Source: an uncultured archaeon
GTDB taxonomy: Archaea; Iainarchaeota; Iainarchaeia; Iainarchaeales; CSSED10-239
DNA: 22,173 bases
Assembly: GCA_964591795.1 (NCBI GenBank)
Contig: CAZQEL010000003.1
Span: 1-22,173 of the forward strand
Direction: 5' to 3'
Shown here: in pieces, positions 2,178 to 22,173 of the stretch
How the letters are laid out: the number at the start of each line of letters is the position of its first letter
How positions within the stretch are numbered: position 1 is the first letter of the stretch
The notes under the pieces: model-generated
The model's database searches: none
What the model was told of the DNA's origin: nothing
Seen by the model: the letters and a program-made list of their open reading frames with translations, nothing else
Translations under genes and position numbers: made by a program

Positions 2178-4534
2178 AGACCTTTCTTAATTGAAAGATT
2201 CTTTTTCTTTTTAGTTTTTTTAGAAGCTACATTCTTTTTAGTAACTTTTTTTGATTTAATATTAGAAACAATATTTTTTACACTTTTTATTGAATCACTC
2301 TTTCCTTGCAAAGATAGTTCTTGTTTTCTTCTTTTAAGTTCTTCAATTTGTGTTTCAATAACTCTTCTTTCAAGTTCGTTAGCAGTATCCATTACTTTTT
2401 CAGAAGAATAAACTAAATCTTTTTTATTTTCTTTTAAATATTCTTTATTTTTAATCTTTTGAAGCTCAAAAAGGTATTTATCTCTCATTTCTTTATAAGT
2501 AAAAGGACTTATCTTACCTTCAAGCAATTTACTATCCAAATAACCAATTTGTTTGATTAAACCTTCTTTAGAATGATTTCGTTTAAATTTTTCAACTTCA
2601 ACAACAATTGCAACAATCATTAAAAACAAACCAAATACCACAACGTAAAGATAAATATCTTTTTTCTCTTTTGAATAAACATAAACATTTTGAGAAGAAA
2701 TTTGATTTGTATCTTTAGTAGTGTCAACAATTACTAAAGACGCATCAGTTGTATTTGAAATATCAATAACCAGTTCATCTAAATCAGTATTAAGATAATA
2801 ATCAAGAACAACAGATTCAACTTCATATAAATAATTTGAAAAATTAAGTATTGAATTTGAAATACTCATTTGTGATTTTGCTTTTGATTCATTAGTAAAT
2901 TTATTAGCATTAAAAGATTTATAATAGTAAATAGCATGATCAAGGAAAATTTTAGACCAAACGTTATTTTCATTACTCATAGCGCTTTGAGATCTTAATT
3001 TTGAAACCAAATCATCATATTTTATATTAAAATCATTTACAGAAATATTATTTTTAGTATCTTCCTGTGTTTTAATTACTGCAAGAGCACTAGCAGAATC
3101 ATAAAGAGAAGTTACATACCATCCTCTTTCAAAGTTTCTTTTAGAAGCATCAAGACGTCTTTTTAAATCATCATTATTAGTTAAATCAGGAGAAACCAAA
3201 ACTAATTGATTTTCAACAGCAATTATATTTTGTTGAGCCCTTTCCTTAAAATGATTAGATTCAACAAACTTTACTCCTGAATTTGTAACTGACACATCCA
3301 AAAAACTATTTGAAATTTCAGCCCATGCAACAGCATAGGCATAATCTTGAATTTTTGAAAAGTTTGAAATTGGTGTAGTTAATTGTATTTTTTCTAATTT
3401 ATCTCTAGCCCAAGTGATTCTTTGTCTTGCACCAACACACCATTCTAGAGATGAAAGAGCACAGTTTGTAGATCTATTTTCTGTAATTTTTATTTTGTCT
3501 TCAAGACTACTAAGTCTTAAATCAAAAACTATAGATGAATCAGATAAAATTGAAGGATTAGTTATAATTTCATCAACAGTAATAATATTTACGTATGCTA
3601 AAAATGAATTATTAGCAGCAGAATAAAAATAATTATTTTCATTATATTTTTTTGAAATATTTAAAAGTTCTTCAGAATAATTAATTGTAGATAAAAGGTT
3701 TTGCAAAACAGAAGTGTCTTTTATAGTTGAAGTTGTAAGTTCAGCTTTTGCTTTTACAAGCTTTTCTTCAGTAACCTTTATGTAATCTGCAGTAATTTGT
3801 TTTAATGGTGTTACTGCTTCTGAATAGTTTATACTATCATAAATAAAATCATCAATTACTTCTTTCTTATCAATATTAATATCAATTGAATTAATATCAT
3901 CAAAAGCATATTCTAAAATATTTTCTATTTTTGAAACTTCAATAACCTTAAGACCCCAATTTTCATAAGCATAGTCAACTAAATCAATTTGTTCTATTTC
4001 ATCATCTTCATTAATAACCTGCATTCTGTTACCTTGAGGTATGAAAAATAATTTAATTCCAATTTCTCCAGCTTTTTTAGCTTTTTGATAAATTCCTCCA
4101 ACATCACCAATATAACCGTCAACTGTTATTGCACCAGTTATACTTACACTTGGATTAAAAATTTCATCTTTAAACATTGAAATTAATAATAAAGCCATTG
4201 CTCCACCAGCAGAAGGACCATCAATACTATATGCATTTGATTCAATATCAAGTGTAAAATCATATTTTTTATTAATATTATTACCTATTATATTTTCAGT
4301 CACTGCAATTGCATTTTTAAAAGATTCTTGTGTTGCAGAACCAACAATAGATTCATCAATTGAAGAAAATATTTTTCCAGTACCATCAACAACCTTAATA
4401 TTTAAATTTGCTGCTTGAGCACTATCTTCTCCAGATACAGCAAATATTTTCATATCTCCTGCAGGAATAAGTGCAAATAGATTTGGTACTAATAAAGTTA
4501 ATATTAATAAAATATATATAAATTTGTATTTCAT
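2174..4534 (-). CDS. Secreted, membrane-anchored Lon-type (S16) serine protease domain protein without an AAA+ module
   Basis: The ORF track gives 2174..4552. I prefer the ATG at 4534 (Met7) because GTGATTATACT precedes it and the product then starts MKYKFIYILLILTLLVPNLFALIPAG, a Sec-like signal. The Lon proteolytic Ser-Lys dyad motifs are IDGPSAGGAMALLL and GGIYQKAKKAGEIGIKLFFIP. No Walker motifs are present. There is one TM segment (IYLYVVVFGLFLMIVAIVVEV) near residue 640, followed by a SHOCT-like LDSKLLEGKISPFTYKEMRDKY, a coiled coil and a Lys-rich tail. Confidence 0.75.
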   Translation of the reverse strand: MKYKFIYILLILTLLVPNLFALIPAGDMKIFAVSGEDSAQAANLNIKVVDGTGKIFSSIDESIVGSATQESFKNAIAVTENIIGNNINKKYDFTLDIESNAYSIDGPSAGGAMALLLISMFKDEIFNPSVSITGAITVDGYIGDVGGIYQKAKKAGEIGIKLFFIPQGNRMQVINEDDEIEQIDLVDYAYENWGLKVIEVSKIENILEYAFDDINSIDINIDKKEVIDDFIYDSINYSEAVTPLKQITADYIKVTEEKLVKAKAELTTSTIKDTSVLQNLLSTINYSEELLNISKKYNENNYFYSAANNSFLAYVNIITVDEIITNPSILSDSSIVFDLRLSSLEDKIKITENRSTNCALSSLEWCVGARQRITWARDKLEKIQLTTPISNFSKIQDYAYAVAWAEISNSFLDVSVTNSGVKFVESNHFKERAQQNIIAVENQLVLVSPDLTNNDDLKRRLDASKRNFERGWYVTSLYDSASALAVIKTQEDTKNNISVNDFNIKYDDLVSKLRSQSAMSNENNVWSKIFLDHAIYYYKSFNANKFTNESKAKSQMSISNSILNFSNYLYEVESVVLDYYLNTDLDELVIDISNTTDASLVIVDTTKDTNQISSQNVYVYSKEKKDIYLYVVVFGLFLMIVAIVVEVEKFKRNHSKEGLIKQIGYLDSKLLEGKISPFTYKEMRDKYLFELQKIKNKEYLKENKKDLVYSSEKVMDTANELERRVIETQIEELKRRKQELSLQGKSDSIKSVKNIVSNIKSKKVTKKNVASKKTKKKKNLSIKKGL

Positions 4535-4602
4535 AGTATAATCACATCTCATAAACAGGTTTATAATCTATTATAAATATAAGAGTTATATTTATTTAAA
4601 GG

Positions 4603-5067
4603 TTACTTTTTCTTATTTTTAAAAAGAAGATTAAATTTTTTGGTTGTATATAAAATATTTTTTCTTCCTTTTTTTTCAATAGATATTAAATCAAGATCTT
4701 TAAGTATTTTTAAATCCTCATAGGGTCTTTTTCTAGTAATTTTAAATTGCTCAACAGGTGTGTTTAAAGAAATAAATGCTAATGTTTTAAGCTCTGATTT
4801 TGAAAGAGTTGTTCCTGTTGCAAAAATATTAAATGAATGAAATTCAGGTTTAACTATTATTTCAAGTTTACCGTTATCAATTACTACTGCTAAAGAAGTT
4901 TTACGTTTAGTATAATCATCTATTAAATCAGCTATTTGAATATCAATAATATCTTTTAAAATATTTGGAAAAGAAGAATATATTTTCTTTAAAGAAATTG
5001 ATTTAGGGGATAAAAAAAGAATTGCCTCTATTGCTTGTTTTAAATAATCACTACTTGTTTGGTCCAT
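4603..5067 (-). CDS. scpB: Segregation and condensation protein B (ScpB)
   Basis: 154-aa ORF. It has the N-terminal AIEAILFLSPKSISLKKI (ScpB eaiLF.s.epls motif). The second winged-helix block is LSKSELKTLAFISLNTPVEQFKITRKRPYEDLKILKDLDLISIEKKGRKNILYTTKKF. Confidence 0.85.
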   Translation of the reverse strand: MDQTSSDYLKQAIEAILFLSPKSISLKKIYSSFPNILKDIIDIQIADLIDDYTKRKTSLAVVIDNGKLEIIVKPEFHSFNIFATGTTLSKSELKTLAFISLNTPVEQFKITRKRPYEDLKILKDLDLISIEKKGRKNILYTTKKFNLLFKNKKK

Positions 5068-5272
5068 ATTTAATCTCTATCTAACATTAATTGACTATAA
5101 AATCAACAATTACATCTAAAATATAATTTCCAGGAATAATAATTACCATTTCAATAGAAACTTAATTATTTTTATTTTTTATAAAAATTATACCTAATCA
5201 GAGTAAATTATTTTAAAAATATAAATATTTTAAATAGTTTGTTTTATAAATTTATTTTAAAAAAAATACTTA

Positions 5273-7018
5273 TCAGTTACAACTATTAGCATAATTGGAA
5301 ACACTCCCAGTAGTAGATACATTGTTACTATAACTACCCCAACAATAATAAGTTAAAAGATTCCATTCACAACATGAATAACCTCCAGCTTCACAAATAT
5401 CCTCACAATAGGAAATGCTGCAAAAACCATTTAACAAAATTCTATCAGATCCACTACAAAACTGTTCAACAATTAAAGAATTACAAGTAGTTGTTGGTAA
5501 AAATGTTGCTGTAATATCTTGATTAGAATCCATTACAACAGTACAAGTTAAATTTGTATCATAACTTGCACAATCACCACTCCATCCAGAAAAATAATTA
5601 CCAGTTTTTGGTGTTGCAGTTATTAAAAAAGAATTTGGATTTGTATTTATTCCTCTTGGATAATTACCAGTACAATTTGAAGAATACAAAGGACAATTTA
5701 TAGCACCACCTAATCCATAAACATTACCATTCCCAATAACCTTTAAATTAAAAGGATAAGTTATATAATCTGTATCAATTGATGCAGTTTTTGCAGAATC
5801 CATAACTAAAGTACAATTTTTATCTGTAGTTGCAGCAGCACAATCGCCCCCCCAAGTAGTTACATATCCAAACCATGGTTCTGCTCTAGTAAATATAACA
5901 GTAGAGTCTACTGGAAAATTAGCAGTACAAGGTGTAGAAGTACCACAATTAATCCCTTCAGGAGTACTTATAACTAAATTACCACTCCAATTAGCAAGCT
6001 TATTTAAAGTAAATAAATAAGTTGGAACAATAGTTGAAAAATTTGCAGTCAAAGTAGTTGCTTGAGCAGGCATTGTATAAGTGAAATATTCATTTGAACT
6101 TACTGACCCATTTAAATCAGTCCAATTTACAAAACTATAACCTAAATCATAATCTAAAGAAGTTGTAACACTAACACTCACAGATACAGGAGTATCAGAA
6201 GGATAATTACCATCACCAGCTAAAATAGCAGAAACTGAAGTTGGATTTTTAGCTAAAGTTAAATTATAAGTTGGAACAACAGCTGAAAAATTTGCAACAA
6301 CATTTTTATTAGCATTCATATTAACAATACAAGTTCCAATTCCTGAACAAGCTCCACTCCAACCAGTAAAACTACTACCAGCTGAAGTAACTGCAGTTAA
6401 AGTTACTGAAGTTCCAGAATCATAAGTTTGAAAACAATCAGTACCACAATCTATACCAGTTGGAGAACTTGTAACTATTCCTGTACCAGTACCGTTTCTT
6501 GAAACATTTAAAATATATGTTATAGAAGTTGCAACTATAAAATTTGCAGTTAAATTATAATCATTTGAAGGCATATTAAAACTATAATTTGCATTAGAAC
6601 TTACTACTGATCCATTTGAATCAGTCCAATTATAAAAAGTAAAACCTACTCCAGCAATAGCATTAACAGGAACCGAAGAACCAGAAGCATAAAGTCCAGA
6701 AGTAATAACAGTTCCATTACCAGTAATTAATAAAATTAAATTATAATTTGTTGCAGAAACAACAGGATCTTGTGGATAATTATTATCATTATAATTAGTT
6801 AAATCTGTTAAAAAATTATCTAAAGTTGCATCAGTTTTATTATCAATATCAGTTGCTTGATCAGTTTTAGATCCAATAAATCCAAATAAAATTGAAGCTA
6901 AAATAACCGAACCTAAAATAAGTACACTTAAAATGACAATCATTTCAATTGATACTTGAGCTTTTTTATTTTTTAAGTTTTTAAAATTAGTTTTATTTTT
7001 TAAAGATTTTTTAATCAT
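5273..7018 (-). CDS. Archaeal type IV pilin-like surface protein with five InlB-B/Listeria-Bacteroides-type repeats and a Cys-rich C-terminal module
   Basis: 581-aa ORF. The class III signal peptide has a basic leader ending KKAQ followed by VSIEMIVILSVLILGSVILASILFG (KGQ.S.E-type prepilin motif). Five repeats of about 80 aa follow. They alternate a ...F.NWTD.NGS...Y.F.MP...LTANF type with a Cys-containing GTGTGIVTSSPTGIDCGTDC...FTGWSGACSGIGTC...ANF type. There are 9 Cys in the last 70 residues and many N-x-S/T sequons. Confidence 0.85.
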   Translation of the reverse strand: MIKKSLKNKTNFKNLKNKKAQVSIEMIVILSVLILGSVILASILFGFIGSKTDQATDIDNKTDATLDNFLTDLTNYNDNNYPQDPVVSATNYNLILLITGNGTVITSGLYASGSSVPVNAIAGVGFTFYNWTDSNGSVVSSNANYSFNMPSNDYNLTANFIVATSITYILNVSRNGTGTGIVTSSPTGIDCGTDCFQTYDSGTSVTLTAVTSAGSSFTGWSGACSGIGTCIVNMNANKNVVANFSAVVPTYNLTLAKNPTSVSAILAGDGNYPSDTPVSVSVSVTTSLDYDLGYSFVNWTDLNGSVSSNEYFTYTMPAQATTLTANFSTIVPTYLFTLNKLANWSGNLVISTPEGINCGTSTPCTANFPVDSTVIFTRAEPWFGYVTTWGGDCAAATTDKNCTLVMDSAKTASIDTDYITYPFNLKVIGNGNVYGLGGAINCPLYSSNCTGNYPRGINTNPNSFLITATPKTGNYFSGWSGDCASYDTNLTCTVVMDSNQDITATFLPTTTCNSLIVEQFCSGSDRILLNGFCSISYCEDICEAGGYSCCEWNLLTYYCWGSYSNNVSTTGSVSNYANSCN

Positions 7019-7160
7019 AATTAATTATCAATTTATATATTATATATAATTATACATGTATTAAATTTATAAACCTTTTTAAAAATAGTTAAAATTAACT
7101 TAAAGTAATAAAACTATGTTTAAAACAATAAATTAACTATTAAACTTGCTATTTTAAAGT

Positions 7161-7250
7161 TTAAAAACAATCAATACCACAATCTATACCAATTGGATAA
7201 CTTGTAACTGTTCCTATACCAGTATCTACTTTAAATACAGATGATAAATA
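7161..7250 (-). pseudogene. Decayed repeat unit continuing in frame after the stop of the 177-aa pilin-like gene
   Basis: After the TAA at 7251-7253 the same frame reads YLSSVFKVDTGIGTVTSYPIGIDCGIDCF and then TAA (7161-7163). This parallels ...NVSRNGTGTGIVTSSPTGIDCGTDCFQ of the neighbouring genes. Confidence 0.7.
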
Positions 7251-7784
7251 TTAACCTAAAAATGAAAATGTTGCTGTAATATTTTTTGCAGAATCCATTA
7301 CAACAGTACAAATTCCAATTCCTGAACAAGCTCCATTCCAACCAGTAAAACTACTACCAGCTGAAGTAACTGCAGTTAAAGTTACTGAAGTTCCAGAATC
7401 ATAAGTTTGAGAACAATCAGTACCACAATCTATACCAGGTAAAAAACTTGTAACTATTCCTGTACCAGTACCGTTTCTTGAAACACTTAAAGTATATGGA
7501 GTTGAAGTTACATTTGCATCTTGCCCACCAGAACCATCATCATAAGTTGACAAGTTTGTTAAAAAATCAACAACAACAGCTTCAGTTTTATTATCAACAT
7601 CAGTTGCTTGATCAGTTTTTGAACTAAAAAAACCTAATAATACTGATGCCAAAACAATTGTAGCCAAAATAAGCACACTTAAAATAACAATCATTTCAAT
7701 TGAAACTTGAGCTTTTTTAGATTTTACTAAGTTCATTTTATTTTTATTTTTTAAAATATTTTTATAAATAGTTTTTTTAACCAT
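7251..7784 (-). CDS. Archaeal type IV pilin-like protein with a single Cys-containing InlB-B-type repeat (short paralog of 5273..7018)
   Basis: 177-aa ORF. It carries the same class III signal motif, KKAQVSIEMIVILSVLILATIVLASVLLG. It has one repeat, YTLSVSRNGTGTGIVTSFLPGIDCGTDCSQTYDSGTSVTLTAVTSAGSSFTGWNGACSGIGICTVVMDSAKNITATF. ATGATTAACT precedes the ATG at 7784. Confidence 0.85.
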   Translation of the reverse strand: MVKKTIYKNILKNKNKMNLVKSKKAQVSIEMIVILSVLILATIVLASVLLGFFSSKTDQATDVDNKTEAVVVDFLTNLSTYDDGSGGQDANVTSTPYTLSVSRNGTGTGIVTSFLPGIDCGTDCSQTYDSGTSVTLTAVTSAGSSFTGWNGACSGIGICTVVMDSAKNITATFSFLG

Positions 7785-7825
7785 AGTTAATCATAAATAT
7801 TTTTTATACATATAATATGTAGTTA

Positions 7826-7840
7826 CTATAAATATATAAA
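7826..7840 (-). promoter_or_regulatory. TATA-like element upstream of the 177-aa pilin-like gene (inside repeat copy 1)
   Basis: The minus strand reads TTTATATATTTATAG, 42-56 nt upstream of the ATG at 7784. The identical sequence recurs at 9159-9173 in repeat copy 2. Confidence 0.3.
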
Positions 7841-7868
7841 TCTTTGTTAAAACTGCTAAAATTAAAAA

Positions 7869-8150
7869 CTAAATTAACTTAATAAAAATTTCAAAAAAGA
7901 AATCATCTTACAAAACATTTATTTTTTGATCCTATGATAAAAATAGAAGTGGTATAAACAAATTGTTTACAACATCAAAATTAGTGAAATTTTTAAAAAA
8001 TAAATTTTTAAAGATCAAACAACCATTATTATCAGCAATTTCTTTAATTAAAGAATACAAAGTATTTATTTTAACCTTAATGTCTTTATTAATTCTTGGA
8101 ACAATAAACTCAATTTTAATTTTTTCCTTTATTATTCTTTCAAAATTTTT
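7869..8150 (-). pseudogene. Relic of the scpA 3' end (last ~94 codons) with two in-frame stops
   Basis: The minus-strand translation parallels the ScpA C-terminus (...VPRIN...INTLYS.IKE.ADN.GCL.FKNLF.K.FTNFDVVNNLFIPLLFLS). TAG at 7932-7934 replaces CAG and TAA at 7908-7910 replaces CAA. The N-terminal two-thirds of the gene are absent. Confidence 0.8.
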
Positions 8151-8170
8151 AAGTGCTAAAATATATGAAA

Positions 8171-8950
8171 TTAATTATAATCTTTTTCTACTAAATAATT
8201 ATCAAAAGCATATAATTTATTTGTTTTTTTATTCATAAAAATATTATACATATTAATATCTTCAATATCTATATTATTTTCTCTAAGTTTAGATCTAGCA
8301 CTAATTTCAAATTCGTTAAGAAAAGATAGCAATCTATTATTATTACTAGATTCTATGAATTCATTAACTAGAATAAATCTTTTTGGGTCCATATGCTCAT
8401 ATGCAATAAAAGATTTCCCTGATTCTTTATTTAAAAATGCAAAATATGGTTTTACTATATTTACTCCTAACCCTTCTAAAATATAAAGAGCTTTTACTTC
8501 ATTGTATGCATGTCTATTATATTCTTTAAAAACATGTGGAGATCCTTGTTTAAGAAATATTTTTTTAGAGCCATATTTTGTTTTAATATTCATAATAAAC
8601 ATTTGTAAAGAACTATTTGAATGTTTAGGAAGTGATTCTTTAATTACAGAAAATTCATATTTATTTTTAAATTTATTTATTCCAGATTTATTAATTAATT
8701 CACTTTCAGATTTAGAAAAAGAATCTATTATTTTTAAAAAATTAGGTAATTCCATCAGAATTTTTTTTGATTCAGCAGTATAAAACAAACCTTTTTTAAG
8801 AATTTTATTAAAATAAGTTATTTTCTTATTTATTTTAATATCATACTTTTGTCTTCTGACTGATTTTCTAACTTCATTAAAAATGGGTTTTTCTATTTGA
8901 TTTTTTATTTTTTTAATATCAAAATTTCCTTTTTTTAAAATTACAGCCAT
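8171..8950 (-). CDS. Hypothetical protein with a protein-kinase-like (RIO/Kdo-kinase-like) motif pattern
   Basis: 259-aa ORF in a genome where random frames close quickly. Motifs appear in kinase order. KIFLKQ is a candidate ATP lysine. NEVKALYILEGLGVNIVKPYF resembles the RIO-type E...L...G..VP.P block. IAYEHMD is hinge-like. DIEDINMYNIFMNKKTNKLYAFD matches hGDLsEyNIL....iyiID (catalytic D, N and metal D). TTGATTAATT precedes the ATG. Confidence 0.45.
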   Translation of the reverse strand: MAVILKKGNFDIKKIKNQIEKPIFNEVRKSVRRQKYDIKINKKITYFNKILKKGLFYTAESKKILMELPNFLKIIDSFSKSESELINKSGINKFKNKYEFSVIKESLPKHSNSSLQMFIMNIKTKYGSKKIFLKQGSPHVFKEYNRHAYNEVKALYILEGLGVNIVKPYFAFLNKESGKSFIAYEHMDPKRFILVNEFIESSNNNRLLSFLNEFEISARSKLRENNIDIEDINMYNIFMNKKTNKLYAFDNYLVEKDYN

Positions 8951-9143
8951 AATTAATCAATAAAATCCACAATATTTTCAAGAAGTTCAATCTATTAAGA
9001 TAAATTATTTAATTTTGCTCTTTCAATAATTCTAATATTTTTCCCTAGAAGAACATCATCTAACTTATCAAAGATTACAAATTTGTTATTTTCTATTAAC
9101 TTCTTTTTTAAATCTTCTGATTTTAATTCAAATATTTTATATA

Positions 9144-9483
9144 TATAATATGTAGTTACTATAAATATATAAATCTTTGTTAAAACTACTAAAATTAGAA
9201 ATTAAATTAACTTAATAAAAATTTCTGAAAAAAAATCATCTTGCCAAACATTTATTTTTTGATCCTGTGATAAAAATAGAAGTGGTATAAACAAATTGTT
9301 TACAACATCAAAATTAGTGAAATCTTTAGAAAATAAATTTTTAAAGGTCAAACAACCATCGTTGTCAGCACTTTCTTTGATTGAAGAATACAAAGTGTTT
9401 ATTCTAACATTGATATTTTCATTAATTCTTGGAACAACAAAATCAGTTTCAGTTTTTTCCTTTATCATTCTTTCAAGATTTTT
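9144..9483. repeat. Direct repeat copy 2 (authentic scpA 3' end plus 58 nt downstream)
   Basis: See copy 1. Positions 9202-9483 are the last 94 codons of the intact scpA. Positions 9144-9201 are the intergenic tail. Confidence 0.9.
9159..9173 (-). promoter_or_regulatory. Duplicate of the TATA-like element, here upstream of the kinase-like gene region
   Basis: Identical TTTATATATTTATAG on the minus strand. It lies about 210 nt upstream of the ATG at 8950. Confidence 0.2.
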
Positions 9484-9867
9484 TTTAGTAGGTTTATGCA
9501 TGATAAAATCAATTGCTTCAATTAATTCATCAAGTGAAACTTGACCTTCTTTATTTCTTATAGGATTATTTAAATTTAATGTGTTTAGTAAAATATCTTC
9601 ATCTTTTGGGAAAATAAGTTCGTCTTCTGGTTCTATACTTGTAAGTTTAAGAGTGTAAGCTTTTATTTTTAAAAGAATACTAGCAGCTAAAAGAGCATTT
9701 GCTGGAACTAAAAGATTAGCATCTTTAAGTGCAATTATTTTTTTAAGATAGAGATCAGTTAATGAAACTATATTAATATTCCAAATATCAAATTCATTTG
9801 ATTTAACAAGATCAAATAACAATAATTTCCAGTTTGGTTGATCAATAATAGTAATTAGTCTATCCAT
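9202..9867 (-). CDS. scpA: Segregation and condensation protein A (ScpA, kleisin)
   Basis: 221-aa ORF. The N-terminal NWKLLLFDLVKSNEFDIWNINIVSLTDLYLKKI matches the ScpA pLdLLl.Li.k.eiDI.di.i..it.qYl block. The size is typical. GGTGG lies 10 nt upstream of the ATG. Confidence 0.85.
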   Translation of the reverse strand: MDRLITIIDQPNWKLLLFDLVKSNEFDIWNINIVSLTDLYLKKIIALKDANLLVPANALLAASILLKIKAYTLKLTSIEPEDELIFPKDEDILLNTLNLNNPIRNKEGQVSLDELIEAIDFIMHKPTKKNLERMIKEKTETDFVVPRINENINVRINTLYSSIKESADNDGCLTFKNLFSKDFTNFDVVNNLFIPLLFLSQDQKINVWQDDFFSEIFIKLI

Positions 9868-9882
9868 AATTAATTAACCACC

Positions 9883-9950
9883 AAAAAAGAATAAAAAGTA
9901 GAAGGTTTTAGATATCTAAAACCTTAGCATTGAAGTTTTGCGCTTCAATG
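9883..9950 (-). terminator. Double hairpin followed by oligo-U tracts at the end of the 227-aa gene
   Basis: A perfect 24-nt palindrome AAGGTTTTAGAT/ATCTAAAACCTT (9902-9925) spans the stop codon. An adjacent hairpin CATTGAAG-7 nt-CTTCAATG lies at 9928-9950. On the minus strand these are followed by TTTTT and TTTTTT runs (9893-9897 and 9883-9888), just before the scpA SD. Confidence 0.5.
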
Positions 9951-10591
9951 TCACATAATTTAATTTTTTTACTTTGTCCTTCAATATATAAAACAGTATC
10001 TTTTTCAAAATAGATTGTAATAACATCAGTTATTAATCTAAATTTAACAGTTTTAGATTTTAATATTTCATCAAAAATTAAACCTAAATTTTCTGAAGGA
10101 ACAATTATATCTATACCTTGCTTTTTACCTTTAACTTTATTTGCAACTTCAACAATATCAACTGTACCCACCACATTAAACTTTAATATAAATTCCTTAA
10201 CATCAAAAGAATTAAATAATTTTTCAATATATCCCTTTGCGTTAATTGTATCTGAAAAAGTATATGTTCTGTAAGATCTATATCTTTCTAAAAAAGAATT
10301 AGCGTCTTCCATTTCTTTTTGTAAATCATTTACTTCTTCTTTTATTTCAGAAACAGTTAAATTCATTTTTTTAAATAAAGAAATTAATTTTCTTTTTTTG
10401 ATCTCTTCTTCAATATCTTTTTCAACATATGTATTTTTTTTAGCAATTTCTGCAATTTCTCTATAATCTATAATCAAATTATTTAAAATATCATGTAATG
10501 GACCATAAAGTTCAATAACTTTATTTGTCCTATAAAGACTCTTATTTAAAGATTCAAAAGATTTTTTTAGTTTATTATTTATATCAGTCAT
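9908..10591 (-). CDS. Hypothetical protein with an N-terminal coiled coil and a beta-rich C-terminal domain
   Basis: 227-aa ORF with GAGGG 5 nt upstream of the ATG. The N-terminal half has a heptad-like charged pattern. I recognise no family. Confidence 0.6.
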   Translation of the reverse strand: MTDINNKLKKSFESLNKSLYRTNKVIELYGPLHDILNNLIIDYREIAEIAKKNTYVEKDIEEEIKKRKLISLFKKMNLTVSEIKEEVNDLQKEMEDANSFLERYRSYRTYTFSDTINAKGYIEKLFNSFDVKEFILKFNVVGTVDIVEVANKVKGKKQGIDIIVPSENLGLIFDEILKSKTVKFRLITDVITIYFEKDTVLYIEGQSKKIKLCDIEAQNFNAKVLDI

Positions 10592-10674
10592 AAAAACCCT
10601 CTAGTTTAATTTTATTAAAAACCCCTAATAATATGATTAATCATATATTTAATAAAGGTATCTTTTATGTATAC

Positions 10675-11586
10675 TTACTTACTTCCTTTTATATCTTTAA
10701 AAGCTTGATATGCTGCAACTGCACCTTGAGATGTTGATGTAACTATTTGCTTAAGTTCAGTTTGATTAGTACAATCACCTGCTGCAAAAGCACCAGGAAT
10801 ATTTGTTCTTTGTTCTTTATCAACAATAATTTCTCCAAACTCATTAAAATTAACCTTTAATTTTTTTAAAAGATCTGTATTTGGAACATGTCCAATTTCA
10901 ACAAATACTCCATCTAAAATCACTTCCTTATTATCTTTAAGAATAATTTTTTCTAATTTTTCAGAACCAACAAGTTCCTTAAGTTCAGCATTATAAATTA
11001 TTTCAATATTTTTCTGTTTATAAAGTGAATCAAGCCACATTGGTTCAGCTCTTAAAGAAGCCCCTCTATATATTAAATAAATCTTTGATGCAATTTCAGA
11101 AAGTAAAAGAGCAGCAGTAACAGCAGCATCAGAACCACCAATAACAGCAACTATTTTATCTTTATAAAACATACCATCACAAGTAGCACAATAATGTACA
11201 CCCTTACCTAAAAATATTTTTTCATTTTCAATATTTAAAGTTCTTTTTTTTTTACCTATCGCAAGAACAACTTTTTTTGTTTTAATAGCTTCTTGATCTG
11301 TATTTACAATAAAATAATTTTTTTCTTTTTTAATATCCATTACTTTTTCATATTTTATAGGAATATTTAAGTAATTTATTTGCTCTGTCATTTTAGACAT
11401 AAGATCCATACCTGAAATTTCCATAAAACCAGGGTAATTACAAATCATATGAGCTGAAGCTGTAGTTCCTCCAAAAGAATCAGTAAAAATTATAGTTGAC
11501 ATTTTATATCTTCCAGCATAAAGTGCAGCTGACATAGCGGCTACTCCGCCACCAATAATTGTTAAATCATACATATTTTCAGTCAT
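10675..11586 (-). CDS. trxB: Thioredoxin-disulfide reductase (low-Mr TrxR family)
   Basis: 303-aa ORF. It has the FAD motif DLTIIGGGVAAMSAALYAGR, the redox-active CATC in HYCATCDG, a second dinucleotide motif VAVIGGSDAAV, and C-terminal GAFAAGD. Confidence 0.9.
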   Translation of the reverse strand: MTENMYDLTIIGGGVAAMSAALYAGRYKMSTIIFTDSFGGTTASAHMICNYPGFMEISGMDLMSKMTEQINYLNIPIKYEKVMDIKKEKNYFIVNTDQEAIKTKKVVLAIGKKKRTLNIENEKIFLGKGVHYCATCDGMFYKDKIVAVIGGSDAAVTAALLLSEIASKIYLIYRGASLRAEPMWLDSLYKQKNIEIIYNAELKELVGSEKLEKIILKDNKEVILDGVFVEIGHVPNTDLLKKLKVNFNEFGEIIVDKEQRTNIPGAFAAGDCTNQTELKQIVTSTSQGAVAAYQAFKDIKGSK

Positions 11587-16747: not shown

Positions 16748-16930
16748 ATGCTTACTAAAAAAATTATAATCACTAAAAAACATTTTAATATGATGATTAA
16801 AGATATATTAATAGATTTAAATATTAATCCAGAAACGGTTCTTGTAAAAATAAAAGATAAATTTACACCAATATCCTATGTTATTAAAAAAAAAACAGAA
16901 CTAGAAGTTTTAGAAGTTATTAAAGTGTGA
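16748..16930 (+). CDS. Small ThiS/MoaD-like beta-grasp candidate lacking a C-terminal Gly-Gly
   Basis: 60-aa ORF ending 8 nt before ttuA. The pattern KIIIT..HFNM.IKDILIDLNINPETVLVKIKDKF.P.SYVIKKKTELEVLEVIKV follows the ThiS layout (l.dll..l.i....v.v.vN...v......l.dgD.vei...v.GG), but it ends IKV-stop. Confidence 0.4.
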   Translation: MLTKKIIITKKHFNMMIKDILIDLNINPETVLVKIKDKFTPISYVIKKKTELEVLEVIKV

Positions 16931-16937
16931 AATAAAT

Positions 16938-17873
16938 ATGAATATTAAATGTAGTAAATGCCAAAAAGATGCTATGATTTATCTACCCTATGGAAAACAT
17001 AATCTTTGTAAAGCTCACTTTAATCATTTTTTTGAAAGTAGAATGAAAAAAACAATTAGACAATTTAAATTATTTTCAAATAAAGATTATCTCGGAATAG
17101 CAACCTCTGGTGGTAAAGACTCAATGGTGTTATTATACTTAATAAATAAAATATTTAAATCAAAAAGAATTAAATTTTGTGCTATTTTTGTAGACGAAGG
17201 AATAAATAATTATTCTAACAAAACTTTTCAAGTTGTTAAAACCTTTTGTAAAAATAACGATATTAAATTAGTTTATTCATCACACAAAAAAGAATTTGGA
17301 ATTTCAACACAAGAAATTGGTAAAAAACATGATAAACGTGAAGGAACTATTTGCACATATTGTGGAGTATTAAGAAGAAAAACTCTAAATAAACTTGCAA
17401 AACAAGAAAAAGTAACTTTAGTGCTCACTGGACATAATCTTGATGATGAATGTCAAACAATTTTAATGAATCTTTTAGATAATGATATAATTAGATTTTT
17501 TAGAACAGGGCCTTATGCAGGAATACTTAATTTAGAATATACAAAACCAAGAATTAAACCTTTTTATTTAACTCCAGAAAAAGAAATTGCAGCATATGCA
17601 CTTTATAATAAAATCCCATTTTATGATTCTAATTGTCCATTTTTCAGAACTGCAAAAAGAAATCACTTTAGAAGTTTTTTAAATGAAACTGAAAGTTTAC
17701 ATCCAGGGTCTAAATTTTCATTAATTAAATCTTTTTTAAAAATTAAAGAAATAAAAGATATTAAAAATACAATTAAAGATTTAAAACCAATAAGAAGATG
17801 TAAAGAATGTGGCGAAGAAACCAGTCAAGACATTTGTAAGTCCTGTGAATTATTAAAAAAATTTAAGAAATAA
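16938..17873 (+). CDS. ttuA: tRNA 2-thiolation PP-loop ATPase, TtuA/NcsA family
   Basis: 311-aa ORF. It has the PP-loop GIATSGGKDSMVLLYL and an N-terminal zinc finger, CSKCQK...CKAHF. The C-terminal zinc finger is CKECGEETSQDICKSCE. The central Cys residues (CTYCG, CPF) are positioned like the Fe-S ligands of TtuA. Confidence 0.85.
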   Translation: MNIKCSKCQKDAMIYLPYGKHNLCKAHFNHFFESRMKKTIRQFKLFSNKDYLGIATSGGKDSMVLLYLINKIFKSKRIKFCAIFVDEGINNYSNKTFQVVKTFCKNNDIKLVYSSHKKEFGISTQEIGKKHDKREGTICTYCGVLRRKTLNKLAKQEKVTLVLTGHNLDDECQTILMNLLDNDIIRFFRTGPYAGILNLEYTKPRIKPFYLTPEKEIAAYALYNKIPFYDSNCPFFRTAKRNHFRSFLNETESLHPGSKFSLIKSFLKIKEIKDIKNTIKDLKPIRRCKECGEETSQDICKSCELLKKFKK

Positions 17874-17943
17874 CTGTATAAAAAGCCTTTCCTACATATA
17901 ATTTTTTATATATTATAAACCATTGAGTATAATAGGTGTACAA

Positions 17944-18768
17944 ATGAAAATATTCATAAATAACAAAATATATAATCAGAGAGATGCTAAAATTTCCGTT
18001 ATTGATTCTTCATTTTTATGGGGTTATTCTGCATTTACAACTTTAGTTGCTGTCAAAAACAAAATACAATTTATAGATGATCACATAGATAGATTATTTA
18101 AAAATTGTAAAAATATAAAACTAAAACTTATATGGACTAAAAAACAAGTTAAAAATATACTTTTAAAAACATTAAAACAAACTAAATATAAAAATGCCAG
18201 AATTAGATTAGCATTTACTAATGGCGACCTAGAAAAAATTACTTTTAGAACTAGTAAAATAAAATCAAAACCAAAAATTATAATTATTATTAAAAAAATA
18301 AAACAGCCTAAACTTGAATTAAATAAATCCATTAGTTTAAAAACAGTAAAAACACAAAGACAATTTGCTGAAATTAAACAAATTAATTTTATACCATCAA
18401 TTTTAGCATGGAAAGAAGCACAAGAAAAAGGATATGATGATGGTTTAATGGTAGATCAAAAAAATAACATATTAGAAGCATCTACTGCAAATATATTTTG
18501 TATAAAAAATAATATAATTAAAACACCTAAAAATAATGTATTATTAGGTGTTACTAGAAAGTATATTATTAAAACAGCTAAAGAATTAGATTATAAAGTA
18601 AAAGAAGGTAATATATCTATTAAAGAACTAAAAAGTTCAAATGAAGTATTCATTACAAACACAACAACAATACTAAGAATAATAAATAAAATAGATAATA
18701 AAATAATTAACAAAACACCTACAATTACAAAAAAGATTGAAAATAAATTTTTAGAAAAGTATTATTAG
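17944..18768 (+). CDS. PLP fold-type IV enzyme (class IV aminotransferase: BCAT / D-amino-acid aminotransferase / ADC-lyase family)
   Basis: The ORF track starts at a TTG at 17923. I prefer the ATG at 17944, which has AGGTG 5 nt upstream. Motifs are FAEIKQINFIPSILAWKEAQEKGYDDGLMVD (candidate catalytic Lys, K..NyL.nilA..eA...G.de.l) and EASTANIFCIKNNIIKTPKNNVLLGVTRKYII...EVFITNT. Confidence 0.8.
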   Translation: MKIFINNKIYNQRDAKISVIDSSFLWGYSAFTTLVAVKNKIQFIDDHIDRLFKNCKNIKLKLIWTKKQVKNILLKTLKQTKYKNARIRLAFTNGDLEKITFRTSKIKSKPKIIIIIKKIKQPKLELNKSISLKTVKTQRQFAEIKQINFIPSILAWKEAQEKGYDDGLMVDQKNNILEASTANIFCIKNNIIKTPKNNVLLGVTRKYIIKTAKELDYKVKEGNISIKELKSSNEVFITNTTTILRIINKIDNKIINKTPTITKKIENKFLEKYY

Positions 18769-18775
18769 ATAAATT

Positions 18776-20413
18776 ATGAATACAACTAAAAATATTGAAA
18801 AAATTAAAAAGATTAGTAAAAAGACACAAACAAAAATTAGAGAAAATCTAATTAATTATAAATATATTTTAAATCAAATAAAACAAATTATTGATTTTCA
18901 AGATGCACTTATTGATCCATTAGCAGTACAAAAAAAAATATTATTGAAAATATTAAAAAGAAACAAACACACAGAATATGGTAAAAAATACTCTTTTTCT
19001 AAAATAAAAACTATTGCAGAATATAAACAAAAAGTACCTATAATTAAATTTTCTGATATCCTAACAGAAGTTGAAAGAATAAAAAATGGAGAACAAAATA
19101 TTTTAACAAAAGATAAAGTAATATATTTTGCATCAACCTCAGGAACAACTAGTAAAATAAAATTAGTTCCAATAACCAAACAAAGAATTAAAAATTATAA
19201 TAAAGAATTTGCACTTTGGGCAGTTTATGTACTTAAAAAATACATAAAAATCACAAATGGAAAAACATTATTTTTTGCAGGACCTTATTTTGAAGGAAAA
19301 ACTAAAGGCAAAATACCATATGGTAGTATTTCTGGATATTTACCATTTAAATCTCCATGGTATATAAAAAGAAAAATTGCAAATCCAATAATTATTTATA
19401 ATGACATGAACTTTGATAGAAAAATTAAAAAAATGGCAATATGTGCCTTACAGGAAAATATTACACAGATTGCATTTACAGCACCAATTGAAGCTATACT
19501 TTTTTTAGATTACATTAAAAATAATAAAAATAAATTAATTAAATATATAAAAAAAATAAACCCTAAAAAAGCAGAATATCTTTCAAGTATAAAAGAATTC
19601 AATGCAATTAATATCTGGCCAAATATAGGGCTTATTAGTTGCTTTAGATCCAAAACAAATGAAATGTACATAGACACATTACTCACAAAAATTGGAAAAA
19701 AATTAGAAATTAGAGATCCAGGAATTAATGCATCAGAAGGCAGAGTTTCAATTGGATTATCAAAAGATGGTGTTTCAGGAGTAATGCTTGTAAATACTAC
19801 TTTCTTTGAATTTATAGATATAGATAGAACTAATAAAGAAACAATTACAATTGAAAAATTAAAACTAAATAAAAAATATAAAGTAATAATGACTACTCAA
19901 GAAGGACTTTATAGATATGATTTAGGAGATATTATAAAAGTAACTGGATTTTTTAAAAAAGTGCCTGAAATTAAATTTTATAATAGAGAAAATTATCTAA
20001 ATATAGCAGGAGAACTTGCGTGTGAAGATGAAATAGTAAAAGCAATTAATAAAACTATTCTTGACACAAAACTGTCTATTAAATATTATACCTTAATACC
20101 ATCACTTTTAGATTTAACAAAAAAACCAAAATATGAAATACTTATTGATTTAGATGAAAAAGAAGATGGGAAAAAAATAATTGAATTTAAAATTAAATTA
20201 GATTTTAATTTAAAAAAAATAATCAATGATTACAAACAAATGCGTGAAGAATTCGGTAAAATGGATCCTCCAATTATTTCTATTTTAGAAGAAGGTAGTT
20301 ATGATGAATATAATAAAAAAAGAGTTGTTGGTTCTGGAAACCCAAAACCAATAAATATACATCAAGACCATAAGTTTAGAAATAATTTTAAAATTAAAAA
20401 GACCTATGAATAA
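18776..20413 (+). CDS. GH3-family adenylate-forming acyl-acid amido synthetase homolog
   Basis: 545-aa ORF that starts 7 nt after the previous stop. GH3/ANL motifs are YFASTSGTTSKIKLVPIT (SSGTT..K.iP), INASEGRVSIG (y.aSEg) and GLYRYDLGDIIKVTGFFKKVPEIKFYNRENYLNIAGE (YRYrlGDvv.v.gf....P...f..R......GE). Confidence 0.75.
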   Translation: MNTTKNIEKIKKISKKTQTKIRENLINYKYILNQIKQIIDFQDALIDPLAVQKKILLKILKRNKHTEYGKKYSFSKIKTIAEYKQKVPIIKFSDILTEVERIKNGEQNILTKDKVIYFASTSGTTSKIKLVPITKQRIKNYNKEFALWAVYVLKKYIKITNGKTLFFAGPYFEGKTKGKIPYGSISGYLPFKSPWYIKRKIANPIIIYNDMNFDRKIKKMAICALQENITQIAFTAPIEAILFLDYIKNNKNKLIKYIKKINPKKAEYLSSIKEFNAINIWPNIGLISCFRSKTNEMYIDTLLTKIGKKLEIRDPGINASEGRVSIGLSKDGVSGVMLVNTTFFEFIDIDRTNKETITIEKLKLNKKYKVIMTTQEGLYRYDLGDIIKVTGFFKKVPEIKFYNRENYLNIAGELACEDEIVKAINKTILDTKLSIKYYTLIPSLLDLTKKPKYEILIDLDEKEDGKKIIEFKIKLDFNLKKIINDYKQMREEFGKMDPPIISILEEGSYDEYNKKRVVGSGNPKPINIHQDHKFRNNFKIKKTYE

Positions 20414-20415
20414 AT

Positions 20416-21483
20416 ATGGATTTCAATAAATATTTTTCACAAAACTATTTAGAAGCAAGAACTAAATTTAGAAAAAAAACTAAACATCTAGTTATTGAAA
20501 AAAAAACAATAATTGATAACTTAACTATCGATTGTGCTTATTTTAAAAACAAAAATACAAAATTATTATTATTTGTATCCGGCACACATGGTGTAGAAGG
20601 ATATACAGGTAGCGCAGTACAATTATTTTATATAGATAAATATATAAAAAATAAAAAATATGATGCAGCATTCATACACATCTTAAATCCTTATGGATTT
20701 ATGAATAATAGAAGATATAATGAAAATAATGTAGATCTTAATAGAAATAATTTAGAAAATTTTAGTAATACTAACAAAAATATAGATGTAAATAAAATTA
20801 TTAAAGAAAAAGATTTATTTGAAATTAAAAAACCTTTAGTTAATGAAAGATTAAATAAAATAATATCTTATTCAACAGTATTAAAATTAGTTAATAAATT
20901 TGGACTTGCAAAAACTATTAAAGCTCTCGGCTATGGTCAAAATAAATACCCAAGAGGTATTTGTTTTACTGGATTTAAAAAAGAAAAATCTACAGTATTT
21001 CTTGAAAAATATATTTCAAAAGTAACTAAAGGATACAAAGAGGTAATTTTTATTGATTTACATACCGGTGCTGCAAAAAAATATAATTTAGACTTTTTTA
21101 CATCAAATGATATAAATACACCTAAATTTAAATTTATTAAAAAAATAATTACCAATCTTACAGAAATCAACACCCAAAAGAAAAAAGGAATAGACCATCT
21201 TGGTGGAACTGAAAACGCATTTTTTAAATATTCAAAAGCAAATAAAAATATTAACCTTGTTTTAGAATATGGAACAAAAAACAAATATTCAACAATACTT
21301 TCTTTAAACTACTTAAGTTTCCTTCTTCTTAAAGAAAATCAAGTAACATATAACGGTCCTTTTGAAAAATTAAAAAATATTAGAGCACAAATGAAGAAAG
21401 CATATTATCCAAACACACAAAAATACAATCAATTTGTAATTAAAAAAACAGATGAATTTTTAAAAAAACTCATAAATTATTAA
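20416..21483 (+). CDS. DUF2817 / M14-like zinc metallopeptidase (carboxypeptidase/deacylase fold)
   Basis: 355-aa ORF that starts 2 nt after the GH3 stop. Motifs are LLLFVSGTHGVEGYTGSAVQ (H..E zinc motif), HILNPYGFMNNRRYNENNVDLNRNN and VIFIDLHTGA (third zinc His). This is the pattern I associate with DUF2817. Confidence 0.75.
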   Translation: MDFNKYFSQNYLEARTKFRKKTKHLVIEKKTIIDNLTIDCAYFKNKNTKLLLFVSGTHGVEGYTGSAVQLFYIDKYIKNKKYDAAFIHILNPYGFMNNRRYNENNVDLNRNNLENFSNTNKNIDVNKIIKEKDLFEIKKPLVNERLNKIISYSTVLKLVNKFGLAKTIKALGYGQNKYPRGICFTGFKKEKSTVFLEKYISKVTKGYKEVIFIDLHTGAAKKYNLDFFTSNDINTPKFKFIKKIITNLTEINTQKKKGIDHLGGTENAFFKYSKANKNINLVLEYGTKNKYSTILSLNYLSFLLLKENQVTYNGPFEKLKNIRAQMKKAYYPNTQKYNQFVIKKTDEFLKKLINY

Positions 21484-21859
21484 TTGAAAGTTTGATTTCT
21501 AAAATATTATTTTTATAACTTGGAATAAAACTATCTTTTATAACACTAAAACCAAGCCAAATTTCTTTGTAAAAAGAATAATTATGACTTCTTATCATTA
21601 AAATATTTTTTGTATCATCAATGTCAAATCTTAAATGATTTAAATTATAGGGTGTATACATTGTAAGATATATATTTTTTTTATCAAAAACAAAGCTATC
21701 AATATCATCACACATTTCAAAATCTTCTTTATTTCTATTAAATTGAATATTAAGATTAATTGGTTCGGTTTTATCCTTAGTCTTTTGATTAGCAAAATCT
21801 AAAATCATTTGTTTAATTGCTTTATCAATATCTTCAAGATTATTTTTATTTTTTTTCAT
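21470..21859 (-). CDS. Small Hsp20/alpha-crystallin-domain-like protein
   Basis: The ORF track starts at 21892. I prefer the ATG at 21859 (MKKNKNN...) because GGGGTGGT lies 4 nt upstream. The C-terminal half, IYLTMYTPYNLNHLRFDIDDTKNILMIRSHNYSFYKEIWLGFSVIKDSFIPSYKNNILEIKLS, follows the sHSP pattern (y.l..dlPg....i.v.v..n.L.I.g....y.r.i.Lp..v.....a.y.nGvLei.l). Confidence 0.5.
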   Translation of the reverse strand: MKKNKNNLEDIDKAIKQMILDFANQKTKDKTEPINLNIQFNRNKEDFEMCDDIDSFVFDKKNIYLTMYTPYNLNHLRFDIDDTKNILMIRSHNYSFYKEIWLGFSVIKDSFIPSYKNNILEIKLSINNL

Positions 21860-22173
21860 TAAACCACCCCATTTTTTTTTGATAAAGATCATTTATAATA
21901 TTCTGTATTGTTGCCCATTTATCTCTTGCAAAAGGAGGTATTTTTTTATGTTCTAAAATATAGTCTTTGATGTACTTAATTGTCTTTGGATCAGCTGGAT
22001 ACCCTGATAATTCATAGCCTATTATTTCATTTATTAAACGATCTCTTGTAACTTTTGCTAAAACAGAAGCACAAGATACAGACATATGATTCAAATCTGC
22101 TTTATGCTCTGAAATAATTTCAATTGAATGTTTATAATCTATTAAATTAAAATTTGAAATCATCCGTTGTTTA
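21846..22173 (-). CDS. rnhB: Ribonuclease HII, C-terminal part (N-terminus beyond the right window edge)
   Basis: The ORF is open to the window edge. EHKADLNHMSVSCASVLAKVTRDRLINEI...SGYPADPKTIKYIKDY matches the RNase HII block e.KAD....VaaASIlAKV.RD......GSGYpsD..T..fl. Confidence 0.8.
   Translation of the reverse strand, partial: KQRMISNFNLIDYKHSIEIISEHKADLNHMSVSCASVLAKVTRDRLINEIIGYELSGYPADPKTIKYIKDYILEHKKIPPFARDKWATIQNIINDLYQKKMGWFNEKK

Follow-up and report, generated by a model that had tools for sequence, protein, structure and literature searches.

The stretch analysed here, hereafter the window, comprises 22,173 nucleotides of an uncultured archaeon (contig CAZQEL010000003.1, assembly GCA_964591795.1). 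We examined three consecutive genes on its + strand, encoding a class-IV (fold-type IV) pyridoxal 5'-phosphate (PLP) enzyme (17944..18768, 274 aa from ATG), a GH3-family acyl-acid amido synthetase, which is an ANL-type adenylating enzyme (18776..20413, 545 aa), and a DUF2817 protein, a predicted M14-like zinc amidohydrolase/carboxypeptidase (20416..21483, 355 aa). We found that GH3 and DUF2817 form a real, co-inherited two-gene pair. We propose that GH3 makes an acyl-amino-acid amide and DUF2817 cleaves this conjugate or a precursor, a reading to which we assign a probability of roughly 0.55. A sequence-only reading of the same locus had put forward a three-enzyme make/attach/remove pathway. 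Its account of the DNA, with three co-directional genes, gaps of 7 and 2 nt and a 70-nt spacer carrying AGGTG, was confirmed, and its family assignments (fold-type-IV PLP enzyme, GH3, DUF2817/M14-like) hold in profile searches. The pathway itself was not supported, as the PLP gene is an orphan lying in the slot of a tRNA-Val gene, and the unit consists of two genes.

The evidence for the pair comes from its recurrence in other genomes. We scanned genome contigs with a GH3 profile built from 8 close sequences. GH3, whose presence in streamlined archaea had been considered unexpected, proved to be widespread in DPANN archaea, with 31 species-level loci and about 90 protein clusters at an identity of at least 38%. 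DUF2817 lies directly downstream of GH3, in the same direction, in 9 of the 31 DPANN-type genome loci. Likewise, every one of the 9 metagenomic loci whose DUF2817 is of the DPANN type (at least 43% identity) has GH3 beside it. The flanks of the pair fall into at least four different contexts (Forterrea-like synteny, L014, L036 and L050), and its adjacency persists down to 37-44% protein identity. Furthermore, the pairwise identities of the two proteins correlate with r=0.86 over 17 pairs, with DUF2817 evolving faster than GH3 (60% versus 81% identity at the nearest relative). Some DPANN-type GH3 genes in the 41-48% identity range sit in metagenome-assembled genomes that carry other labels, namely Spirochaetia/Spirochaetaceae for L013, L015, L017 and L018, on contigs of 50-56% G+C, and Methanosarcinales for L014, L021, L024, L034 and L036. 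Mis-binning, mislabelling or horizontal transfer could account for these labels.

The genes might also be neighbours through genome compactness, their adjacency being inherited synteny with no functional link. Most pair-bearing loci do come from a single clade in which the synteny extends further (L15e-hyp60-TtuA-...-RNase HII, where hyp60 is a small 60-aa protein), the other neighbours are unrelated housekeeping genes, and GH3 often stands alone. However, the adjacency is kept at 37-44% identity and between differing flanks, and every DPANN-type DUF2817 found adjoins a GH3. In the DPANN contig L050 the two genes are arranged head-to-head, about 77 nt apart, with GH3 at 4245-5846 (-) and DUF2817 at 5923-7059 (+), and the linkage therefore survives rearrangement. 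We regard the absence of any functional link as improbable overall; it is unlikely for GH3 and DUF2817 but quite plausible where the PLP gene is concerned.

The association is one-sided. In L012, a locus syntenic with L014, DUF2817 has been lost, and GH3 can therefore work alone. The DPANN-type DUF2817 is always found with GH3 and GH3 is often alone, which suggests that the hydrolase depends on GH3, and this one-sided dependence speaks for a role tied to the GH3 reaction. More distant bacterial DUF2817 genes have a GH3 nearby in 1 of 71 loci (L100) and none in the other 70; all-versus-all clustering found no conserved neighbour common to these 71 loci. The same type of clustering of Woesearchaeota-type GH3 loci yielded housekeeping or unrelated genes only, and no third conserved neighbour. 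A Forterrea-like metagenomic contig, L045, carries two tandem GH3 paralogues (2763-4391 and 4379-5992) upstream of one DUF2817, an arrangement that hints at substrate diversification.

Distant bacterial GH3 proteins (22-26% identity) were found in Dehalococcoidia and a Gammaproteobacterium (L037, L039, L040, L041 and L042 at ~6900-10750; L100 at 2072-3846). These loci share a conserved operon of a fatty-acid hydroxylase, GH3 and an MR/MLE enolase-superfamily gene, and in L100 the GH3-enolase pair is convergent to a bacterial DUF2817 gene. The gene 3' of the distant GH3 was considered as a divergent DUF2817 and rejected, being an MR/MLE enolase-superfamily protein; the gene 5' was considered as a class-IV enzyme and likewise rejected, being the fatty-acid hydroxylase. 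Some members of the MR/MLE enolase superfamily racemise N-acyl-amino acids or dipeptides.

In every test run, the window ligase behaved as a typical GH3 family member. The N, M and C domains of the Pfam GH3 models match with E-values of 2.9e-49, 7.7e-23 and 1.2e-09 (168.4, 80.8 and 39.2 bits against a cut-off of 23.6). GH3 enzymes share three nucleotide-binding motifs, SSGTSxGxxK-like, YGSSE-like and YRxGD (PMC12493201). Their counterparts in the window protein, S/T-T-S-G-T-T...K129, A-S-E321-G and L-Y-R-Y-D-x-G-D385 (YRYDxGD at 379-385), are invariant or nearly so among 62 homologues; the Tyr of YGSSE is not conserved in GH3 of the window type, which reads I-N-A-S-E. An AlphaFold 2 (AF2) model of the protein reached a predicted local distance difference test (pLDDT) score of 90.6. 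In Foldseek searches it matched AtGH3.5/3.6, JAR1 and PBS3 with template-modelling (TM) scores of 0.80-0.82 and E-values of ~1e-36, at a sequence identity to plant GH3 of ~18-21%. Motifs and the two-domain ANL/GH3 fold are thus intact, and amide-forming activity is predicted from them.

The sequence-only reading had stated that no function was described for prokaryotic GH3, which is outdated: OlsH of planctomycetes was published in 2025 as a GH3-type lyso-ornithine-lipid synthetase (PMC12493201). The OlsH model NF052613 is the sole NCBIfam model that matches the window GH3, at 107 bits against an equivalog cut-off of 620, and the window protein is therefore a GH3 but not OlsH. We rejected an OlsH identity on this score and on the lack of an OlsI-type alpha/beta-hydrolase gene adjoining the window GH3. 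Our literature search found no publication on archaeal GH3.

At the family level, the hydrolase is a DUF2817 member. PF10994 (DUF2817) matches with an E-value of 1.7e-57 and 195.9 bits against a cut-off of 23, covering 340 of 341 profile positions. Other similarities are weak, with E-values of 1e-3 to 1e-5 to AstE/AspA and MpaA; the AstE_AspA profile gave 22.7 bits, below its cut-off of 25, and precomputed matches to PF00246 (Peptidase_M14) exist for only some DUF2817 homologues. Alignment of 64 sequences showed that H58-x-x-E61, D107-L-N-R110 and H216 are invariant and D214 is nearly so. E284 lies in the motif LEYGT ahead of a conserved G-T, with Asp in its place in two bacterial homologues. 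The M14-clan active-site set is therefore present, namely the zinc ligands HxxE...H, the Arg and the acidic catalytic residue. The Arg-rich site is typical of enzymes that recognise a free carboxylate.

The AF2 model of DUF2817 (pLDDT 91.7) resembles M14 carboxypeptidases A/B, REP34, AstE-like proteins, CphZ and MpaA best, with TM scores of 0.34-0.57. Its matches to carboxypeptidases A and B had a Foldseek probability of 1.0 but TM scores of 0.45-0.57 and a root-mean-square deviation above 8 Å, and the model carries large helical insertions relative to M14-clan amidases. Because the TM scores of the best folds are only 0.34-0.57, we place DUF2817 far from any solved structure, and a sequence search for a close one found nothing below E=3e-4. 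Together these data point to an M14-like zinc amidohydrolase, with an activity predicted from motif and model. The N-terminal hydrophobic leader or signal sequence found in many bacterial homologues is absent from archaeal DUF2817 proteins, including that of the window. The archaeal proteins are therefore probably cytoplasmic, like the ATP-using GH3. We found no paper addressing the function of DUF2817.

We infer the chemistry of the two enzymes, and the relation between their products and substrates, from the family, fold, intact catalytic motifs, adjacency and co-divergence observed here. GH3 would adenylate a carboxylic acid with ATP and then join the acid to the amino group of an amino acid, giving an acyl-amino-acid amide; every characterised GH3 enzyme, bacterial OlsH among them, works in this way. 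Cytoplasmic DUF2817 would cleave an amide bond adjoining a free carboxylate. Its most likely substrate would be the GH3 product, resulting in conjugate turnover comparable to that of plant GH3 and the ILR1/IAR3 amidohydrolases; alternatively, DUF2817 might cleave a precursor and so release the substrate of GH3. Nucleotide, vitamin and lipid synthesis are reported to be missing from Forterrea-type genomes (PMC5905446), and host-derived acids or amino acids are therefore likely inputs of GH3.

Several observations weigh against this proposal. In about 70% of the DPANN-type GH3 loci, no DUF2817 turns up within ~8 kb, and, as these loci and L012 indicate, GH3 does not need the hydrolase. The pair-bearing loci come mostly from one clade, so that the independent observations number only ~4-5. 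If one operon encoded both the synthetase and the hydrolase of a given bond, a futile cycle would result unless the two were regulated. Finally, apart from the pair itself nothing is conserved in the loci that would point to a substrate, for instance a gene for a transporter or for an enzyme that forms the substrate.

The PLP gene stands outside this conserved module. No homologue of it occurs in any of 36 GH3 loci from species-representative genomes or in any of 9 metagenome loci with a DPANN-type DUF2817, and an exhaustive HMMER search of 1.84 billion cluster representatives retrieved no homologue above 40% identity (best 39-40%). The closest relative, L016 (82% GH3 identity), lacks the gene. 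Relatives at 75% GH3 identity, among them the complete genome of Candidatus Forterrea multitransposorum (CP045477), keep the order L15e-hyp60-TtuA-GH3-DUF2817-hyp140-RNase HII without it, and relatives at 54% GH3 identity likewise keep GH3-DUF2817 without it. The sequence-only reading had expected the three families to occur together elsewhere; GH3 and DUF2817 do so beyond this genome, but the three-family unit fails this test since the PLP gene is absent from the related loci.

Alignment of the intergenic regions revealed what the relatives have instead. Between TtuA and GH3 they carry a tRNA-Val(GAC) gene (7736-7809 in L016, 7904-7977 in L009, 5544-5617 in L008, 7739-7813 in L011 and 6540-6615 in L022), and in the window the PLP gene occupies that exact slot. 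Furthermore, it stands behind the same conserved promoter-like box, TATAAAAAGC (17877-17886, +), which aligns with the region upstream of tRNA-Val in L016, L009 and L008. Absence from relatives, together with this position behind a shared box, indicates that the PLP gene is a recent insertion, confined to this lineage, that replaced tRNA-Val(GAC). It probably rides on the promoter of the tRNA gene. If its product, whether an amino acid, a keto acid or a PabC-type product, feeds the module, it does so only in this lineage. An additional gene is found in a subclade at ~53% GH3 identity: L004 (5230-5928), and also L011, L022, L047 and L048, have a VTT/DedA membrane-protein gene between TtuA and tRNA-Val/GH3, which is not enough to argue for a lipid substrate.

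The PLP enzyme matches Aminotran_4 (PF01063) at 1.6e-48, and in alignment it keeps the Schiff-base Lys, the Glu, HxxR and GxTR. Its specificity motifs read W-G-Y-S-A-F-T-T-L-V, R-I-R (in ARIRL) and F-I-T-N-T-T. Branched-chain aminotransferases (BCAT) are recognised by YxxxxF[ED]Gx[KR] and YxR...[LMVI]G[VL], and canonical D-amino-acid aminotransferases (DAAT) by FxxxxYxV[IVA][KR], HxY and [RK]xH (Höhne et al. as quoted in PMC8401098 Table 1). The BCAT motifs are absent from the window enzyme and its best NCBIfam score for this class is 169.5 against a cut-off of 363; none of the three DAAT motifs appears in the alignment, with NCBIfam scores of 134 against 320 and 117 against 277. We therefore rejected both canonical assignments. 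Every NCBIfam match of the enzyme is below cut-off and the top-ranked model is BCAT, a ranking that is uninformative because a control, P0123, which is a PabC by operon context, ranks alike.

We also compared the enzyme with PabC, the 4-amino-4-deoxychorismate lyase (ADCL). Of 129 PabC sequences, 123 keep Thr at the third motif position, and F27, T29, H43, R46, K140, G199 and R202 of PaPabC are strictly conserved (PMC3174152). The window enzyme holds equivalents of all seven (in F-T-T, H-I-D-R, E-I-K and G-V-T-R). Several of the seven are common to all class-IV enzymes and Thr29 is the discriminating one; the window enzyme has Thr at this site along with an ADCL-type TN motif. In PabC structures the conserved active-site Tyr occupies either position I or position II (PMC3174152), and the window enzyme has Phe at both (I-T-F; K-Q-I-N-F), as has its homologue P0122 at position II. 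Its motif 1 ends in Val instead of the usual Arg, and the ADCL model PRK07650 scored 140.6 against a cut-off of 308. Among the 151 nearest cluster representatives, the specificity position is Thr in 90, the BCAT-type Gly in 12 and the DAAT-type Val in 11, and one representative is a PabB-class-IV fusion. The active-site comparison thus excluded canonical BCAT and canonical DAAT and left PabC only in part, with the Thr present and the active-site Tyr missing. We describe the protein, on its residues, as a putative non-canonical, Thr-type, PabC-like class-IV enzyme.

This likeness bears on the idea that the PLP enzyme is an ADC lyase yielding 4-aminobenzoate (pABA), to which GH3 ligates Glu, while DUF2817 hydrolyses the pABA-Glu or folate-type amide. 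The closest homologues in a word-indexed search lie in pab/fol contexts: P0122 (39% identity) adjoins pabB, and P0123 (32%) is part of a pabB-pabA-X-folP-folK operon. The PabB-class-IV fusion, the diagnostic Thr and the seven PabC residues fit as well, and GH3.12 structures are among the top structural matches of the window GH3, plant GH3.12 being an enzyme that uses 4-substituted benzoates. In two alphaproteobacteria-like metagenomic contigs (L071 2317-6819 and L108 2583-7083), pabB-pabA-pabC lies ~500 nt from a DUF2817 gene, a second and independent case of a PabC-type gene close to DUF2817, but in both contigs pabC and DUF2817 have a small membrane-protein gene on the opposite strand between them. 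The PLP gene is missing from every other pair-bearing locus. In the 22-kb window, to which this search was confined, we found no pabA, pabB or fol genes, and vitamin biosynthesis is reportedly missing from the related Forterrea genome (PMC5905446). P0250 and P0255, the AFTT-type homologues closest to the window enzyme, lie outside pab contexts, and the Phe residues at both Tyr positions and the sub-cut-off ADCL scores in NCBIfam also speak against a lyase. The benzoate/pABA-Glu reading thus gained some circumstantial support, because the PLP enzyme is PabC-like, and it could hold in this lineage only; we consider it unlikely.

The PLP enzyme may instead be a transaminase, acting on D-amino acids or broadly, that supplies the amino-acid or keto-acid partner of GH3 as a lineage-specific extension of the module. 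Its gene precedes GH3 on the shared strand by 7 nt, and the intact Schiff-base Lys, Glu and HxxR would support such catalysis. Thr-type class-IV enzymes include transaminases whose specificity is expanded to D-amino acids/(R)-amines, such as that of C. pusillum with its FETIA motif (PMC8401098 Table 1), and Rv0812 is a bifunctional ADCL/DAAT (PMC8105722). The pairing of distant bacterial GH3 with an MR/MLE enolase-superfamily gene is a hint of stereochemical tailoring around GH3 products. However, the enzyme lacks the canonical specificity motifs of BCAT and DAAT, the PLP-GH3 association recurs in no relative, and an insertion into a tRNA slot could be functionally neutral. We hold this possibility to be doubtful.

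The sequence-only reading had also compared GH3 and DUF2817 to a ligase and carboxypeptidase acting antagonistically on a C-terminal carboxylate. As a description of the logic this is fair; a protein substrate found no support. The candidate target would be hyp60 (16748..16930, +), a 60-aa beta-grasp protein resembling TtuB, SAMP2 and ThiS, which is syntenic with TtuA in the clade, and the two enzymes would act on the C-terminus of a protein or peptide as do tubulin tyrosine ligase (TTL) and cytosolic carboxypeptidases. The order hyp60-TtuA-(tRNA-Val)-GH3-DUF2817 is conserved throughout the Forterrea-like clade, M14 enzymes trim C-termini, and all 12 hyp60 homologues end in ...VIK or ...VIK[F/N/V/M], without the Gly-Gly normally needed for thiocarboxylation. 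However, the similarity of hyp60 to these proteins is weak and below significance thresholds (best E 2.6e-4 for SAMP2, 0.16 for the TtuB PDB entry), the pair occurs in L014, L036 and L050 without TtuA or hyp60 nearby, all characterised GH3 enzymes use small-molecule acids, and the synteny may reflect no more than shared ancestry in one clade. We consider action on a C-terminus very unlikely. A specific form of it, in which DUF2817 trims the variable C-terminal residue of hyp60 and GH3 adenylates the exposed carboxylate for thiocarboxylation or conjugation without an E1, strikes us as fainter still; if true, it would be the first case of an ANL/GH3 enzyme acting on a protein C-terminus.

The surroundings of the pair are those of an archaeal genome. 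The window has a G+C content of ~22%, and profile searches identified the archaeal housekeeping genes L15e, TFIIB, TtuA/NcsA, RNase HII and Trm5. The host of the cluster is a Forterrea-like DPANN archaeon (Iainarchaeota/Diapherotrites). Directly upstream of the spacer lies the gene for the TtuA/NcsA-type tRNA 2-thiolation enzyme (16938..17873, +), assigned by profile matches. The AT-rich spacer itself (17874..17943, +) spans the 70 nt between the TtuA stop (17873) and the PLP ATG and carries the promoter-like box as well as AGGTG (17934-17938), 5 nt ahead of the ATG. The open reading frame listing opens the PLP gene at a TTG (17923); homologues align from the ATG-encoded M-K-I-F, which sets the start at ATG 17944. 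Gaps of 7 nt (ATAAATT) between PLP and GH3 and 2 nt (AT) between GH3 and DUF2817, a shared strand and the lack of a terminator-like site on the + strand make the three genes an apparent operon. The three-gene arrangement recurs in two further independent assemblies, one from ENA and one from Logan, and is therefore not an assembly artefact. A sigma-70 promoter scan, which is not meaningful for an archaeon, gave fewer sites than expected by chance, and Rfam detected no riboswitch or other RNA near the cluster.

Downstream, a conserved hypothetical gene (21470..21892, -; 140 aa, no Pfam match) is convergent with DUF2817, and the 3' ends of the two genes overlap by 14 nt (21470-21483). It is followed by the gene for RNase HII (21846-22163, -), and both are syntenic in relatives. 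At the opposite end, a partial tRNA (1-54, -) is cut by the window edge; Rfam scored it at 41.9 bits and ARAGORN missed it. Two proteins encoded at 5273-7018 and 7251-7784 (-) contain divergent InlB B-repeat (Flg_new_2) domains and are probably cell-surface proteins, of a kind proposed for contact between DPANN archaea and their hosts. We dropped a role of the cluster as a defence system, as PADLOC models matched none of the five proteins tested.

Taken further, the proposed module would be a dedicated system for making and breaking an acyl-amino-acid metabolite in host-dependent DPANN archaea, a possibility that we rate at somewhat less than an even chance. Such a system would provide the first functional context for DUF2817, a large family in bacteria, archaea and eukaryotes without known function. 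A co-diverging pair in biosynthesis-poor genomes yields a testable hypothesis, namely that the hydrolase acts on the product or the precursor of the acyl-amino-acid ligase, and points to production or recycling of a specific amide conjugate by these symbionts, perhaps from host-derived compounds. Independently of this, the PLP slot appears to offer a clear-cut example in which a tRNA gene has given way to a protein-coding gene while its upstream box has stayed in place.

The closest known counterpart is the homeostasis of auxin and jasmonate conjugates by plant GH3 and the ILR1/IAR3/ILL hydrolases. The ligase family, its fold (TM 0.80-0.82) and its nucleotide-binding motifs are the same, and so is the logic of an ATP-dependent amide-forming enzyme combined with a metallo-amidohydrolase that releases the amino acid. 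The plant ILR1-type hydrolases are M20 enzymes and are not encoded beside GH3, whereas the archaeal partner is an M14-like DUF2817 in an apparent operon. OlsH is the only biochemically characterised prokaryotic GH3 that we found, and its product, lyso-ornithine lipid, is an N-acyl amino acid (PMC12493201). However, in the OlsH/OlsI system the partner is an O-acyltransferase, where the window GH3 has a hydrolase, and the ornithine lipids made by this pathway are reported to be absent from archaea.

On the side of the hydrolase, DUF2817 shares the zinc triad HxxE...H, a DLNR-type Arg and the acidic catalytic residue with the murein tripeptide amidase MpaA, the succinylglutamate desuccinylase AstE, aspartoacylase, CphZ and REP34, which act on acidic amino acids in acyl or gamma linkage. 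Several of these M14-clan amidases hydrolyse N-acyl-Asp/Glu-type amides, the kind of bond that GH3 makes. Tubulin tyrosine ligase and the M14 cytosolic carboxypeptidases are alike in opposing a ligase to an M14 peptidase at a carboxylate terminus, but TTL is an ATP-grasp enzyme with a protein substrate, whereas the window ligase belongs to GH3/ANL and nothing points to a protein substrate. Mpl and MpaA match the make/break logic more loosely. The PLP enzyme, for its part, has its fold and PLP-binding residues in common with PabC, BCAT and DAAT. Relative to these known systems, what differs in the archaeal pair is the family of the partner, the operon organisation and the archaeal host.

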